Part shown: positions 21,001 through 42,000 of the stretch, piece by piece
Layout: every line of letters begins with the position of its first letter
Numbering within the stretch: position 1 is the stretch's first letter
Assembly: GCF_057098645.1 (NCBI RefSeq)
Contig: NZ_CM169472.1
Length of the DNA: 64,000 nucleotides
Strand: one strand, 5' to 3'
Position numbers: made by a program

Positions 21001-24000
21001 TTTCTCCCTTTCAACGATAAGCCAGGCATAATGTGGCTGCTTAAGCCAATTGTCGCAAAGCCAAAGATCTCTATATAGCTAACCTCATGGTTAATCCGAT
21101 CTCAGTAATACCATGAGAAAGAACTATTTCCTTTTTATGTAACTCTTAAGGGTTACAAGCGTGAATGCAAATGGTAATATAATGAAATGTCGCCTGCCCG
21201 TAATGACCATAAAGAATCTACCCCGACGTAAAAGATATAGAGAATAAGATGCAGTAATGATGATGCTTTGTTAATCAAATAACAAGATTTAAATTAATTG
21301 TAACTCATCAACTTTGTTGTTTTATTCGGATGTCTGAAATGATGTCGTACAGAAAACTACATATCATTTCAGATATCCTCTAAATTGGATTTTTTTCACC
21401 CAAGGAGGAAGGATGGGAAACTTTTAAATTATTGTGTTTTAGTAAGTTAGGTACTTCGCCGCTCGATGAAAAAACAATAACTCTTAGTTGTTTTTTGAGT
21501 CCTTATTTCAGCTTATTTTTCGTGATTTTTTATTGCGCCTGGTGATAGGATTTGCCGCAATCATTTTTGCTGATATTCCGTGAGTCATCAAAAGTGATCT
21601 GTATGTCCAAAATGAATAGCATCAATAAGGAAAACGTTAGTGGCGATGATAAATTTAAGTAAGGAAGCGACGGTGGGTAAAGCATTAACCCCTATTGCTA
21701 TACTTATGATGTTGTCTTTTCCTGTAGCTTCTCAAGCAGCTGGATTAGTCATAAAAAATGGAACGGTATATAACGCCAATGGTGTGCCAGTCGTTGACAT
21801 CAACAAACCTAACGGTAGCGGTTTATCTCATAATATCTGGGATAACCTAAACGTTGATAAAAATGGTGTCGTTTTCAATAACAGCGCTAATGAATCCAGT
21901 ACTTCACTTGCCGGAAATATTCAGGGAAACAGTAATCTGACCTCCGGGGCGGCGAAGGTGATCCTGAATGAGGTTACTTCCAAAAATCCTTCAACCATTA
22001 ATGGGATGATGGAAGTCGCAGGGGATAAAGCGGATCTGATTATTGCCAACCCGAATGGTATTACTGTAAACGGTGGTGGTTCAATCAATACAGGTAAACT
22101 GACCTTAACCACCGGGACGCCGGATATCCAGGATGACAAGCTGGCCGGTTACTCCGTGAACGGCGGTACCATTACGCTCGGTAAACTGGATAACGCCAGC
22201 CCGACAGAAATTCTGTCCCGTAACGTGGTGGTTAATGGCAAAGTGTCTGCCGATGAGCTGAACGTTGTTGCTGGCAATAACTATGTTAATGCCGCAGGCC
22301 AGGTGACCGGTAGCGTATCCGCCACGGGTTACCGTAACGGTTACAGCGTAGATGTTGCCAAACTGGGCGGAATGTATGCGAACAAAATTAGTCTGGTCAG
22401 CACCGAGAAAGGTGTAGGGGTTCGCAACCTGGGCGTTATCGCAGGTGGGGTTAATGGTGTCAGCATCGATTCCAAAGGTAATCTGTTAAACAGTAACGCC
22501 CAGATTCAGTCTGCAAGCACGATCAACCTGACGACAAATGGTACTCTGGATAACACCACCGGTACGGTGACATCTGTAGGCACTATCTCGCTCAATACCA
22601 ACAAGAATACTATCGTGAATACCCGTGCGGGTAACATCTCCACGATGGGCGATATCTACGTTAACAGTGGCACGATTGATAACACCAACGGCAAGCTCGC
22701 CGCAGCAGGTATGCTGGCGGTTGATACCAATAACGCCACGCTGATTAACTTTGGTAAAGGGAGTTCTGTCGGGATTGAAGCGGGGCTCGTGGCGCTGAAA
22801 ACCGGAACGCTCAACAACAGCAATGGTCAGATTCGCGGCGGTTATGTGGGGCTTGAATCAGGCGCGTTGAATAACAACAACGGTGATATTCAGACCACCG
22901 GCGATATCGCCATTATCAGTAACGGTAATGTGGATAACAACAAAGGTCTGATCCGTTCGTCCACCGGGCATATCGTTATTGGTGCGGCAGGTAGCGTAAA
23001 TAATGGTTCAACCAAAACCGCCGATACCGGCAGTTCTGACTCTCTGGGCATTATTGCAGATACCGGCGTAGAAATTGGTGCGAACAACATCAATAACAAC
23101 GGCGGACAGATTGCGTCTAATGGCAACGTCTCCCTGTCAAGTTACAGCACGGTCGACGATTATGCGGGCAAAATTCTGTCCAACAGCAAAGTGATTATCA
23201 AGGGAAGCTCACTGCGTAACGATACCGGGGGGATCAGCGGTAAGCAGGGTATTGAAGTCGCCGTTGGCGGCAGCCTGACCAATAACATTGGCGTGATCAG
23301 CTCTGAAGAAGGTGATATCTCCCTGTTAGCCAACTCAGTGGACAACCACGGCGGCTTCATGATGGGGCAGAACATCACGATGGAGTCGATGTCTGGTGTC
23401 AATAACAATACCGCGCTGATCGTGGCCAGTAAAAAACTGAAGATAAATGCGCGCGGCAGTATCGAAAACCGCGATGGCAATAACTTCGGTAATGCTTATG
23501 GTCTGTACTTCGGCATGCCTCAGCAAACGGGTGGAATGGTCGGCAAGGAAGGCATCGAGCTTTCCGGGCAGAACATCTATAACAACAACAGCCGTCTTAT
23601 CGCTGAGGATGGTCCTCTGACTCTGCAGGCGCAGAACACGTTCGACAACACGCGTGCTCTGGTCACCAGCGGGGCGGATGCATCTATTCAGGTTGGCGGA
23701 ACGTATTACAACAACTACGCTACCACCTGGAGTGCGGGCAACCTGGATATCGACGCGACCACGCTGCAAAACAGCAGCAGCGGTACGATGATCGATAACA
23801 ATGCGACCGGGTTTATTGCATCTGATAAAAATCTGTCACTGGAATTGGTGAATAGCCTTACCAACTACGGCTGGATCAGCGGTAAAGGCGATGTTGATGT
23901 CACGGTGAATAACGGCAACCTGTATAACCGCAATACCATTGCGGCTGAAAAGGGGCTGGATATTGCCGCGTTGAACGGTATTGAAAACTGGAAGGATATT

Positions 24001-39000: not shown

Positions 39001-42000
39001 TCTATAGTGCCTCGGACAGCGTTCAATTTGAAGCAGGCAAATTTGCCGCGCCGTCAGGAATGTTCTTTTTGCGTTCGCCTTCTGATTTGCAAACGCATTA
39101 TTACACCGGATTCCAGTCGACGCGTTTGCACGATCCCAAAATGACATCGGCGTATCAGGCGTCATCGTGGGGCGCAAAAATGAGCGTGGATACACGCGAT
39201 TATGCGTTTTCGGCGAGTGTCATACCGAAGTTAGCCACCATCGACAAACGCTATGTGACGTCTGGCAACTGGTCGGCTAATCAGCAGGGAAACAGCGACG
39301 AAGCCTATCTGCTGAGCTTCAGCGATCATCGCTTTGATGAGCACACGCCGACAGTCAATGTGCGGCTCGGACCATCGCCGTCACTCGCGCTGTCTGACAG
39401 TTATCACTACACCCCGCAGCTTACGCTGAATGTCGACGCAGCCTACCACCGCTCCCAGCAATGGCGGCATCTTTCCCACCGTGAGACGGCGCAGGTCGAG
39501 GAATATCAGTTTCCGGATTCGCTCTATGAAACGAAAGATGAAAGCGGCGTGGAGCTGGCGCTGGGTGGGCAGTACACCAGTGATAATTTCAGCGTGTTTG
39601 GCGTTGAGTATTACTTTCAGAGCGAGGGTTATTCGCGCGCTGAACAGCGTCAGCAGCGCGAGTTAATTGACTTCCTCAATACCACAACCGGCTATGCGCC
39701 ACTGGATCAGGCATTTGATTCTTACAAATACCTGATGGCTTCAGAAATCAGCAATACCGCCAATCAGGGGATGCTGCAGGGTAAGCACTATCTGAACGCC
39801 TGGGCCAGTCTGCCGCTGGCGGGAGAGTCGACGCTGCAGCCTTCGCTGGTGGTCAATCTCATTGATGGCAGTGCGTTGCTGGGCCTGCATTATTCCACGC
39901 CGCTCAGCGCTATCAGTAACCAGCTTGAAGCCTATGCCGGTGGCTATAGCGCGCTGGGAAGTCGGTATTCTGAATTTGCGCTTTTTGGCGACACGTTAGG
40001 CCTTTATTTGGGCTTTAAATACTATCTATAAGGATAAAGAGATGATGAATAATGCTTCACAACCGACAGTACTGCTTTTTGCCGGTCAGGGTAATCCGGT
40101 TATTGGTATGGGCAGCGATCTTTGGGATCTCAACGCCAGTACAAAACATATCTGGGATTGTGCCAGCGATATTTCCGGACTGAACCTGCGTCGCCTGTGT
40201 CAGAAAGGGCCGATGAATCGCCTTATTCAAACGACGGTACAACAACTGGCGGTGACCGCAATTAATGTAACGCTCTATACCCTGTGCCGCGAGCGTCTTG
40301 AGAATTTAACGGTTGTGGGCTCCTGCGGACACAGCGTTGGTGAATACAGTGCGCTCTACGCCGCTGGAGCTATTTCTCTTGAGACGCTATTTGGCATGAT
40401 TCACTTCAGAGCCAGCCTGATGCATGACGAAAGCCAGAGAAATAAAGGCGCAATGCTGGCGGTTAAAGGCATCAACCGCGAACAACTGCAGACGATGATT
40501 ACGGAATCAGGCATTGCGCTGGATATTAGCTGTGATAACACGCCGCGCCAGCAGGTTATTGGGGGAACGCAGGCTGCGTTGAATGAATTTGCCACGCTGC
40601 TGATGGCCGCTGGGTACGAACCGGTTAAACTCGGTGTGAGCGGTGCTTGGCACACGCGTTTGATGGAAGACGGCGTTCAGGCAATGCGCGATTATCTTGC
40701 CGGACTGGATATCGCTTCGCCAGAGCATCAGGTTCTGATGAACGTAACAGCAAAAAGCGAGGTCGCTCCGTCAATTATCAAAGAAAATCTCTCATTACAC
40801 TTAACTCATACGGTGAAATGGACTGAATCTCTCGATACATTTCTGAATATGCCAACCCCGGTAGCTTTCCTTGAAATAAGTAATAAGCCCTATTTGGGGA
40901 ATATGTTAAATGATTTTGCTGGCGTGGATCAGCAACGAGTTATGCATTGTCGTAAAGCATTTAGTGATGCGAAGGTATTCAAATGATTCCTGATTATTTA
41001 ACTTTTATTCGCTTTCAGGATAAACGAAATCTGATATACATTTATGCTATTGGACTTATTCTGATAGGCTTTTATTGGAAAAATGCAGGGTTTACTTTTC
41101 CATCAGAGGATATTGGTGTAGTTAGTGGGATTCTGGCCCTGGTGCTGTATAATTTTATTTTTGATCTCAAGGCGTACTGGGCTTATAAATGCGTCACGAA
41201 GAATATCGATTTTTCGTGGTTTAAGAAAAAGCAGAACCACAAAATAGAATTATTTCTTACACAACCTCTGGTGGCAGGATTTCTGTCGTTAATCATGTTG
41301 AGTGCAATGAGTTGGGGGCTATACCAGCTTCTACCCTCGTTATATGCGCTGTTCCTGATTTCGTTACTTGGGCCGTTGGTCATCTTTCTGTTGTTTCGGA
41401 TGATCCGCACCAGTTATGTCAAGCAGGTCGCTATTTCAGTAGCGAAAAAAGTAAAATATAAAAGTCTGACTCGCTATGTGCTGCTTTCGGTGTGTATCTC
41501 AACGGTTGTTAACCTGCTTACTATCAGCCCGTTGCGTAACAGTGATTCTTTTGTGACAGAGGGGCAGTGGTTAACGTTTAAATCGATAATTGCATTGCTC
41601 ATTCTTTGTGGCGTAGTGTTGGCGATTAATCTATTTTTTCTGCGCTTCTCCAAGCGGTACGCTTTTCTGGGCAGGCTTTTTTTGCAGGAAATCGATCTGT
41701 TTTTCTCCAGTGAAAATGCGTTGTCGACCTTTTTTGCCAAGCCGCTTTGGCTTCGGTTATTCATATTGCTGGTTATTGAAGTGATGTGGATTACGCTGGT
41801 GTCGGTATTGGCAACGCTTGTGGAATGGCGGATTTGGTTTGAAGCCTATTTTTTACTCTGCTATGTACCGTGCTTAATTTACTATTTTTTCCATTGTCGG
41901 TTCCTCTGGCATAACGATTTTATGATGGCATGTGACATGTATTTCCGTTGGGGGCATTTTAATAAGTGAGGAAGTTACAGAAAGTGACCAGATAGCGCAT

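Follow-up and report, generated by a model that had tools for sequence, protein, structure and literature searches.

Why would a filamentous exoprotein and its secretion partner stand at the head of what looks like a private lipid factory? The question is raised by positions 21640-41969 of a 64,000-nt stretch of contig NZ_CM169472.1 (assembly GCF_057098645.1), hereafter the window, to which all coordinates refer unless a locus is named. This block holds 17 consecutive open reading frames (ORFs), all on the + strand: a two-partner secretion (TPS) pair, tpsA and tpsB, followed by genes for a fatty-acid-like synthesis line, for a candidate envelope export route and for the membrane protein YcdU. 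From tpsA to ycdU, the junctions measure 88, 15, 13, 3, 21, 35, 73, 4, -4, 10, -17, 0, 8, -4, 13 and -4 nt, so that the same-strand run of overlapping or abutting genes described in an initial annotation is borne out. Our answer, which we hold with only slightly more confidence than doubt, is that the block is one co-inherited, operon-like module, in which a private fatty-acid-synthase (FAS)-like line and a route through the envelope operate with TpsA/TpsB, the exoprotein acting together with the lipid.

RefSeq/PGAP gene calls for E. coli O145:H28 RM12761 contain the same 17 genes, with no pseudogenes. The block has 100% identity to O145:H28 strains RM12761 and RM13516, its identity to O157:H7 is about 98%, and it is the core of O-island 47 (OI-47) of the O157:H7/O145:H28 lineage; the likeness to this island, which the initial annotation had suggested tentatively, is confirmed by sequence identity and by the literature. 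Reviews define OI-47 as z1528-z1556 of EDL933 and give functions there only for GrvA, as a regulator, and for the cyclic di-GMP/fimbrial part, and comparative papers present the island as a marker common to O157:H7, O55:H7 and O145:H28. The searchable literature on OI-47, Z1542-Z1556 and ycdU/ymdE contained no paper giving the block a product or a function; the Z1542-Z1556 locus tags led only to an unpublished thesis on Z1542 from 2007, found through a citation. Profile searches, gene calls and structure predictions upheld every gene label given in the annotation, and its interpretation is supported as far as sequence analysis reaches; the labels upheld include the tpsA/tpsB pair, the dedicated acyl carrier protein (ACP) with its own synthesis enzymes, the second ketosynthase (KS), the export set (ABC ATPase, periplasmic protein, FtsX-type permease, LolA-like protein and barrel) and ycdU.

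All 17 proteins were mapped onto 57 loci encoding relatives of the block's protein in which a ketosynthase is fused to a chain-length factor (KS-CLF), taken from GTDB contigs at one genome per species. The full order, from tpsA-tpsB-acpS to the acyltransferase (AT) gene and ycdU, was found in around 20 species of the Enterobacteriaceae, Erwiniaceae and Yersiniaceae plus one Acinetobacter (Kosakonia, Enterobacter, Izhakiella, Silvania, Buttiauxella, Leclercia, Klebsiella oxytoca, Mixta, Pantoea, Tenebrionibacter, Rahnella, Serratia sp. Ag1 and Acinetobacter sp. ANC 4558). One could argue that the TPS pair and the lipid cluster are independent neighbours on one mobile segment, TpsA being a common adhesin or haemagglutinin and the envelope role of the lipid system being unrelated to it. 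Several observations speak against this explanation, which we hold to be unlikely. Adjacency has outlasted the divergence of TpsA and TpsB, each of which is down to 44-67% identity, and the gap between tpsB and acpS has a median of 18 nt in 20 species, in which the junctions of the block are likewise conserved. TpsB also co-diverges with the lipid genes as tightly as these do with each other (Mantel r = 0.81 for pairwise distances of TpsB and KS-CLF, 0/2000 permutations). Finally, the block ends exactly at tpsA and ycdU in unrelated contexts: similarity outside these two genes was seen in only 8/171 upstream and 11/190 downstream locus pairs, the flanks being unrelated between genera, and the Enterobacter bugandensis IncFII plasmid pEC105227L carries exactly these 17 genes between two copies of an IS6-family transposase (WP_309258370.1; L061 1495-24405). 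The plasmid pEC105227L is mobilizable, and its IS6-bracketed block forms a composite-transposon-like cassette. A Rahnella megaplasmid carries the cluster too.

When compared to O157:H7, the block of the window shows 289 synonymous and 88 non-synonymous differences (pN/pS 0.09), with every gene at a dN/dS of 0.20 or lower and all 17 frames intact. These values indicate that all 17 genes are under purifying selection and that the block is functional, not a relic. From its recurrence in around 20 other species and from this selection, the gene arrangement is judged to be far beyond chance. Synteny, co-divergence, unrelated flanks, the IS6-bracketed copy and purifying selection together argue that the block is a functional unit of inheritance and transfer with its ends at tpsA and ycdU; the physical coupling of TPS and lipid genes proposed in the initial annotation is strongly supported at the genetic level. 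Among 5426 complete E. coli genomes, 379 (~7%) carry at least 80% of the interval, and 2668 match some part of it.

Regarding the TPS pair, tpsA (21640-25452) encodes a 1270-aa exoprotein with a TPS secretion domain and a beta-helix of the filamentous haemagglutinin (FHA) type. It matches TIGR01901 at 7.7e-22 (77 bits, cut-off 29) and has an FHA repeat as well, its residues 43-292 find FHA Fha30 and HpmA as best PDB matches, and the motifs ILNEV, NPS and ANPNGIT are present in this order. Past the TPS domain only Fil_haemagg repeats were recognised; a C-terminal toxin domain was not found, and no tandem repeats occur in tpsA at the DNA level. Most orthologues are about 890 aa long, as against 1270 aa in E. 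coli and Enterobacter, where the beta-helix is internally expanded. In two of the mapped loci (L009 and L022, 1-1500), a second tpsA-like paralogue lies further upstream. The tpsB gene (25541-27160) starts 88 nt after tpsA and encodes an Omp85-family TPS transporter, assigned by PGAP to the ShlB/FhaC/HecB family, whose residues 89-532 match CdiB (1.4e-44) and FhaC (2.9e-21) in the PDB. With a TPS domain and an adjacent Omp85 TpsB, apparently its cognate, the pair has the features of a type Vb system, as judged from these domain matches; calling TpsA an adhesin is an assumption.

The synthesis line begins with an AcpS-type phosphopantetheinyl transferase (PPTase; 27176-27544; TIGR00516 79.6 bits, cut-off 59.8), followed by a FabG-like beta-ketoacyl-ACP reductase (KR; 27558-28319; NF009466 225 bits, cut-off 222) with the TGxxxGxG and YxxxK motifs. 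A FabZ/ApeI-like hot-dog dehydratase (DH; 28323-28871) comes next; it has an internal insertion, matches FabZ models over residues 17-80 and keeps the GHFP...E motif, and its orthologue in a distant locus (L062) gives Pfam FabA and ApeI-like matches. The ACP itself (28893-29174) matches ACP/PP-binding models and shows the DSV attachment motif at Ser50. At the 3' part of the block, a FabD-like malonyl-CoA:ACP transacylase (the AT; 40045-40986) with a GHSVG motif matches TIGR00128 at 2.5e-52. The NCBIfam cut-offs were passed by AcpS, by the FabG-like KR and, within the KS-CLF protein, by its KS half; the ACP, the FabZ-like DH, the FabD-like AT and the GcvT-like enzyme fell below theirs.

The KS-CLF protein (30444-33002; 852 aa; NF005589 436 bits, cut-off 387) joins a FabF-like active KS to an inactive CLF-like half. 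We consider it a true fusion because the catalytic triad (C162/H294/H330) is kept in the N-terminal half and lost in the C-terminal one, where Gly stands in for Cys and neither His remains. Its nearest solved KS is PDB 9s5h (267 bits), followed by FabF (~250), the ishigamide KS (203) and ApeO (7f27, 186). Between the ACP and KS-CLF genes, and not beside gcvH/P, lies the gene for a GcvT-like enzyme with a tetrahydrofolate-type aminomethyltransferase fold (29210-30370). It matches GcvT models at 2e-39 without reaching the equivalog level (TIGR00528 100 vs a cut-off of 236; NF001567 135 vs 300); its best PDB match is the T-protein 1woo (1.2e-24), and the catalytic Asp of the T-protein (D94) is invariant in 54/54 homologues. 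As each related locus has this gene, even the most distant, the GcvT-like protein belongs to the core of the pathway and is not a passenger. According to their motifs, these genes make up a type II FAS-like or highly reducing type II polyketide synthase set (ACP, PPTase, AT, KS, KR and DH) with the catalytic residues intact.

Two further genes follow KS-CLF. The first, KS2 (33007-34230), encodes a divergent ketosynthase with weak matches to KS models, in which Cys, the first His and Lys are kept and the second His is replaced by Tyr in all homologues. The second, hyp317 (34227-35180), encodes a 317-aa protein with no sequence match in NCBIfam, Pfam or a PDB profile search. Like the 462-aa barrel protein described below, it was identified solely by structure prediction and fold search: its AlphaFold2 (AF2) model (pLDDT 88) has a KAS-III/thiolase fold, with OleA, ChlB3, DpsC, FabH and PqsBC as top Foldseek matches at ~1e-10. 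The family is small, with 59 representatives among 1.84e9 proteins, and it has no conserved nucleophile, the position being Ser, Ala, Phe or Cys across homologues, which makes a catalytic role improbable for hyp317. The hyp317 start and the KS2 stop share 4 nt, and a metagenome contig (Ga0103264_1000579) encodes a natural KS2::hyp317 fusion (P0262, 784 aa; L062 6282-8636). On these two grounds we infer a heterodimer, in which hyp317 would probably be the non-catalytic partner of KS2, by analogy with KS-CLF or PqsBC. The contig with this fusion also holds a FabL-like reductase, a YcdU-like gene after the AT gene, acpS at its 3' end and a divergent LysR regulator.

The candidate export route starts with an ABC ATPase of the LolD/MacB type (35191-35898), with 228 bits against LolD TIGR02211 (cut-off 307.75). 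It is followed by a gene for a 218-aa protein (35882-36538) that has a signal peptide and no family in Pfam or NCBIfam. A hydrophobic N-terminal segment followed by an AxA-type site is conserved in this protein, and its junctions of -17 and 0 nt are kept in 20 species; it presumably serves the transporter as a partner in the periplasm, and it is translationally coupled to the ATPase on one side and to the permease on the other. The FtsX/MacB-type (LolC/E-like) permease (36539-37849; TIGR02212 lolCE 3.6e-26, 92 bits vs a cut-off of 362) has 4-5 transmembrane segments and a large periplasmic stretch at residues ~63-290, and an orthologue matches Pfam MacB_PCD and FtsX. Then comes a 262-aa LolA-like carrier (37858-38646; Pfam PF17131 LolA_like, 3.2e-36) with a cleavable signal peptide. 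The E. coli protein has a near-lipobox, LATSC, and we considered whether it could be a LolB-like lipoprotein; the lipobox Cys is not conserved across homologues, so we discarded this option and take the carrier to be soluble. The last component, a 462-aa protein with a signal peptide and invariant C23/C76 (38643-40031), gave no sequence match in NCBIfam, Pfam or a PDB profile search. Its AF2 model (pLDDT 85.5) is an outer-membrane beta-barrel of the 18-strand OprD/ChiP/AlgE class, matching 'alginate export' and porin barrels in AFDB50 and the PDB folds of ChiP, OccD/K and AlgE at ~1e-12.

These components could also serve to release a diffusible secondary metabolite (a polyene-like acid, a pigment, a signal or an antibiotic) through a MacB-type pump and an outer-membrane channel, instead of building an envelope lipid. 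In line with this, the ATPase scores as well against exporters of soluble products (DarD, 205 bits; MacB, 203; DevA, 188) as against LolD, the scores of YbbA and FtsE being similar too, and the barrel is of the class of substrate channels that includes OprD, ChiP and AlgE. However, the block has neither a MacA/DevB-type membrane-fusion protein nor a TolC-like duct, it lacks a thioesterase that would free an acid, and it does have a soluble carrier with the LolA fold, which is used to ferry lipidic cargo across the periplasm. According to these data, a diffusible product is improbable.

The block closes with ycdU (40983-41969), which encodes a polytopic inner-membrane protein with at least 6 predicted transmembrane segments. 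YcdU is an orphan, with no real family in Pfam, and a profile search gave ~120 protein clusters, all without domains and all from cluster-bearing taxa. Even in the distant metagenome locus, a YcdU homologue follows the AT gene (hhalign 97.7%). As far as these homologues reveal, the YcdU family does not occur apart from this lipid system. The presence of an OpgC-like gene in the cluster of Desulfatitalea led us to ask whether YcdU is an acyltransferase-3/OpgC relative, an idea that we rejected (hhalign probability 0.2%), and PADLOC gave no matches that would assign an anti-phage defence role to the unassigned proteins.

How, then, would the module work? The private AcpS would convert its own ACP to holo-ACP, the FabD-like AT would load malonyl units, and KS-CLF would extend the chain, with the FabG-like KR and the FabZ/ApeI-like DH processing each round. 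The KS2/hyp317 pair and the folate-type GcvT-like enzyme may contribute a priming, branching or off-loading step. The MacB/LolCDE-type ABC transporter and its 218-aa partner would then extract the lipid from the inner membrane and pass it to the soluble LolA-like carrier, which would deliver it to the 18-strand outer-membrane barrel, YcdU acting as a system-specific inner-membrane component. Meanwhile, TpsB would secrete the filamentous beta-helical TpsA to the same surface, which the lipid is expected to reach and where it may modify or cooperate with TpsA.

Several points weigh against this single-module reading. Known families of thioesterases, lipid acyltransferases, glycosyltransferases and flippases have no member in the block, which leaves the step from acyl-ACP to a membrane-embedded, exportable lipid unexplained. 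The Lol-like parts fall under the NCBIfam Lol cut-offs and are not Lol orthologues, and soluble molecules are exported by MacB-type pumps as well. In two Kosakonia species, tpsB is present without a detectable tpsA. The Proteus group, formed by Proteus, Morganella and Providencia, has neither an adjacent TpsB nor the LolA-like gene nor the barrel, and more distant relatives in Serratia, Erwinia, Paraburkholderia and Pseudomonas have no TPS gene beside their lipid and export genes. Besides, the KS-CLF tree by which these groups are ordered is a neighbour-joining tree with no bootstrap support. Some of the same facts favour the explanation by independent neighbours: clade B (the TPS-less group running from Serratia to Pseudomonas) and more distant loci have the lipid and export genes without TPS, tpsA and the adjacent TpsB are each missing in some lineages, and no recognisable protein-acylating enzyme is encoded in the block. 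In the two Kosakonia loci (K. pseudosacchari, L012, and K. quasisacchari, L013; ~1-5050), tpsB and the lipid genes are kept.

In the KS-CLF tree, the Proteus group is sister to the full-block, TpsA-bearing clade (clade A). Its operon begins with a TpsA-like gene (838 aa, TPS domain confirmed), and that such a gene heads the sister operon at only 30% identity speaks once more against independent neighbours. The ORFs upstream of the Proteus tpsA are not a hidden TpsB, one being an AzgA-type purine permease and the other matching nothing. Serratia, Cedecea, Erwinia, Edaphovirga, Paraburkholderia and Pseudomonas lie outside both groups and keep the lipid genes, the ABC transporter, the LolA-like gene and the barrel. 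More distant relatives lack TPS genes, so the TPS pair appears to be an add-on, acquired once, to an older lipid and export module. The TPS-less group has two extra genes, one for a 246-aa protein with no family or PDB match and one for a FabL-like enoyl reductase (ER), and the reductase is also found in still more distant cores (Desulfatitalea, Arenicella, metagenome-assembled genomes (MAGs) and the metagenome contig). The FabL-like ER is thus present in clade B and in three distant loci (L046, L049 and L062), and absent from clade A and the Proteus group. Because a dedicated ER is absent in the TpsA lineage, the E. coli product would probably be unsaturated or polyene-like, unless the housekeeping FabI substitutes. 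Among the distant loci, a MAG (L049, 16037-18685) has a second KS-CLF fusion, and in Desulfatitalea (L046, 11831-12994) the place taken by the export genes in Enterobacterales is filled by an OpgC/MdoC-like membrane acyltransferase.

Covalent lipidation of TpsA by the pathway, with the private acyl-ACP as donor by analogy with RTX toxin activation and with the ABC transporter, LolA-like carrier and barrel handling the acylated protein or the donor in the periplasm, would fit the dedicated ACP and PPTase, the absence of a thioesterase and a lipid acyltransferase, the strict co-inheritance of TpsA in clade A, two system-specific proteins free for a role (YcdU and the 218-aa protein) and the fact that the KAS-III-fold proteins ChlB3, DpsC and CerJ, the first two of which are fold matches of hyp317, can be acyltransferases, but it is very improbable given that the block has no HlyC/CyaC-like, Lnt/Lgt-like or GNAT acyltransferase, that hyp317 has no conserved nucleophile, that the ACP is cytoplasmic whereas TpsA passes the inner membrane unfolded via Sec, and that clade B runs the same lipid and export genes without TpsA.

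We therefore keep the co-inherited module as our reading of the locus. A bolder form of it is that the lipid is an obligate partner of TpsA (as an acyl modification, an anchor or a cofactor), that the GcvT-like enzyme acts on a chain tethered to the ACP in a folate-dependent transfer of one-carbon or amine groups, that KS2 and its KAS-III-fold partner perform a non-canonical condensation, and that the product is of a lipid class undescribed in Enterobacterales. We regard this combination as rather unlikely; if true, TpsA would be the first exoprotein of a two-partner secretion system to come with a lipid factory of its own and a shuttle for lipid in the periplasm.

The block also throws light on E. 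coli K-12. Window positions 5188-40642 are missing from K-12, where homology begins again at window position 40643, which falls in the AT gene and adjoins IS3D (K-12 locus L059 7504-8830). Because K-12 homology starts within the AT gene beside this element, ymdE'/ycdU is an IS3-truncated stump of the operon: by this alignment, the ymdE pseudogene corresponds to the final 344 bp of the AT gene, and ycdU, with which the operon closes, has been orphaned. This explains two puzzling K-12 genes (ymdE-ycdU), which a 2016 study counted among the core genes of phylogroup A E. coli associated with mastitis without giving a functional context.

Regarding the surroundings and possible regulation, tpsA is preceded by a 1.39-kb AT-rich leader (20251-21639, + strand; ~35% GC, 0.35-0.37) that is non-coding, with no + strand ORF of at least 70 aa, and presumably holds the promoter and regulatory region. 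Several weak sigma-70-like sites at 20512-20904 are not above chance. The composition of the leader is typical of horizontally acquired, possibly H-NS-silenced DNA. Inside the block, scans for consensus promoters and terminators gave counts at or below shuffled expectation, with nothing convincing between tpsB and acpS, and an Rfam scan of 21640-41969 found no RNA families. From their spacing and the absence of consensus terminators, the 17 genes are probably co-transcribed. The largest gap in the lipid part always separates the GcvT-like and KS-CLF genes. It measures 73 nt in the window (30371-30443), where a weak hairpin lies at 30419-30434, and in other species it has a median of 98 nt and reaches 216 nt; it could be an internal regulatory site. 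The right boundary (42128-42249) consists of a 9-bp GC-rich terminator-like hairpin (42128-42149) followed by the tRNA-Ser gene serX on the minus strand (42165-42249), and is backed by K-12 synteny with serX-ghrA. Downstream of ycdU the window continues into serX-ghrA like K-12, and RM12761 and O157:H7 E32511 have an integrase-led island there. On the left, the EAL-domain (VmpA-like), FidL-like and GrvA-like winged-helix genes of OI-47 lie at 5000-9000 (GC 34-38%); the GrvA-like gene is a 270-aa ORF in the window (7299-8111), and PGAP marks the RM12761 copy as frameshifted. The fimbrial usher region differs from that of RM12761 in its insertions (11916-13366 and 15715-18039), which are a 1.45-kb insert that includes a 398-aa ORF and an element like IS66/ISEc8. 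From these differences on both sides, the window belongs to a strain that is related to RM12761 but not the same. Outside the block, Rfam matches to E. coli sRNAs were ES056 (47850-47941, minus strand, 119.7 bits) and ES036/CssrF (58035-58077, minus strand, 47.9 bits).

The block lies in a lineage-defining island of enterohaemorrhagic E. coli O157:H7/O145:H28, and its product is still unassigned after 25 years. Its carriers also include many Enterobacterales associated with plants, insects and hospitals, in some cases with the block on a plasmid. If a private FAS makes a surface lipid that is tied to a secreted filamentous protein, this lipid could affect adhesion, biofilm formation, the envelope barrier or host recognition. 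The unit is defined to the base, from tpsA to ycdU; K-12, with only the ymdE'/ycdU stump, offers a natural near-null background, and the plasmid-borne IS6-bracketed copy a ready-made transfer cassette. Natural variants with and without TPS, ER, LolA-like gene or barrel predict which genes would set saturation, export and the partnership with the protein.

How does the block compare with known systems? Aryl-polyene (APE) clusters of Gram-negative bacteria, with ApeO/ApeC as KS-CLF and with ApeR, ApeQ, ApeI/P, ApeE/F and ApeL/M, share with it a KS, a CLF and a further KS, a FabG-like KR, an ApeI/FabZ-like DH, a private ACP, the lack of an ER, a LolA-like protein and an apparent outer-membrane destination. 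In contrast, the block is missing their aryl-starter adenylation enzyme, ammonia-lyase or chorismate enzyme, methyltransferase, thioesterase, acyl- and glycosyltransferases and MMPL/RND pump; aryl-starter families had no match in the 17 ORFs, and no unassigned + strand ORF of at least 70 aa remains. It has a single ACP and a fused KS and CLF, its KS resembles FabF more than ApeO (250 vs 186 bits), and it adds the GcvT-like enzyme, the ABC/FtsX extractor, the 18-strand barrel, YcdU and the TPS pair. Because the aryl-starter enzymes, the MMPL pump, the acyl- and glycosyltransferases and the thioesterase are absent and the KS is nearer to FabF, this is not an APE cluster. The initial annotation had described it as APE-like with an ABC exporter in place of the MMPL pump and no obvious aryl starter, and both absences hold for the families of the 17 ORFs.

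With LolCDE-LolA-LolB, the block shares an ATPase most like LolD, an FtsX/MacB_PCD permease most like LolC/E and a periplasmic protein with the LolA fold. The last resemblance is at the level of the fold only, the carrier belonging to PF17131 (LolA_like/TP_0789-like) and not to the LolA family. There is one permease gene, an 18-strand barrel stands in the place of the absent LolB, an extra 218-aa periplasmic partner is present, and no lipoprotein substrate (a protein with a lipobox) is encoded. Since the orthology cut-offs are missed and a second permease, LolB and a lipoprotein cargo are lacking, it is not the Lol pathway. Neither is it a tripartite pump of the MacAB-TolC or DevBCA-HgdD type, because their membrane-fusion adaptor and TolC-like duct have no family match in the block.

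TPS operons with a modifying enzyme are represented by HMW1ABC and EtpBAC, which include a glycosyltransferase, and lipid dependence by ShlA, whose activation needs phosphatidylethanolamine. As in those operons, TpsA and TpsB stand beside accessory genes, but here the accessory set is a 15-gene lipid synthesis and export system instead of a single glycosyltransferase. The literature searched on TPS together with ACP, ketoacyl or LolA yielded no TPS system with a dedicated lipid pathway. The rhizobial sets AcpXL/FabZXL/FabF1XL/FabF2XL, for a very-long-chain fatty acid, and NodF/NodE make a special acyl chain for a surface glycolipid. They share with the block a private ACP, extra FabF-type condensing enzymes and FabZ, and one block homologue is labelled 'Nodulation protein E' in UniRef. 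They differ in ending in a defined acyltransferase (LpxXL or NodA) and in having no export machinery, GcvT-like enzyme or TPS genes.

An active FabF-like KS with a catalytically dead FabF paralogue in a FAS-like cluster is also found in the anammox 'ladderane cluster', as the KS-CLF-like FabF2/FabFmut heterodimer (bioRxiv 10.64898/2026.05.19.726425); PDB 9s5h, a recently deposited KS and the best sequence match, could be the anammox FabF2. The block belongs to another phylum, has its KS and CLF fused and lacks radical-SAM enzymes, and there is no reason to expect ladderanes from it. In Kosakonia cowanii, a biosynthetic gene cluster unlike known clusters reportedly bears the antiSMASH label 'ladderane' (PMC10269543); it may be of this family, in which case it would count in favour of a diffusible metabolite. 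The sequence of the island has been known since the O157:H7 genome, and the system itself is uncharacterised. What appears to be new is a dedicated type II FAS-like cluster for a putative envelope lipid that brings together a Lol-like route of ABC transporter, carrier and barrel, a GcvT-like core enzyme, a KS2/KAS-III-fold pair, YcdU and a TPS exoprotein.

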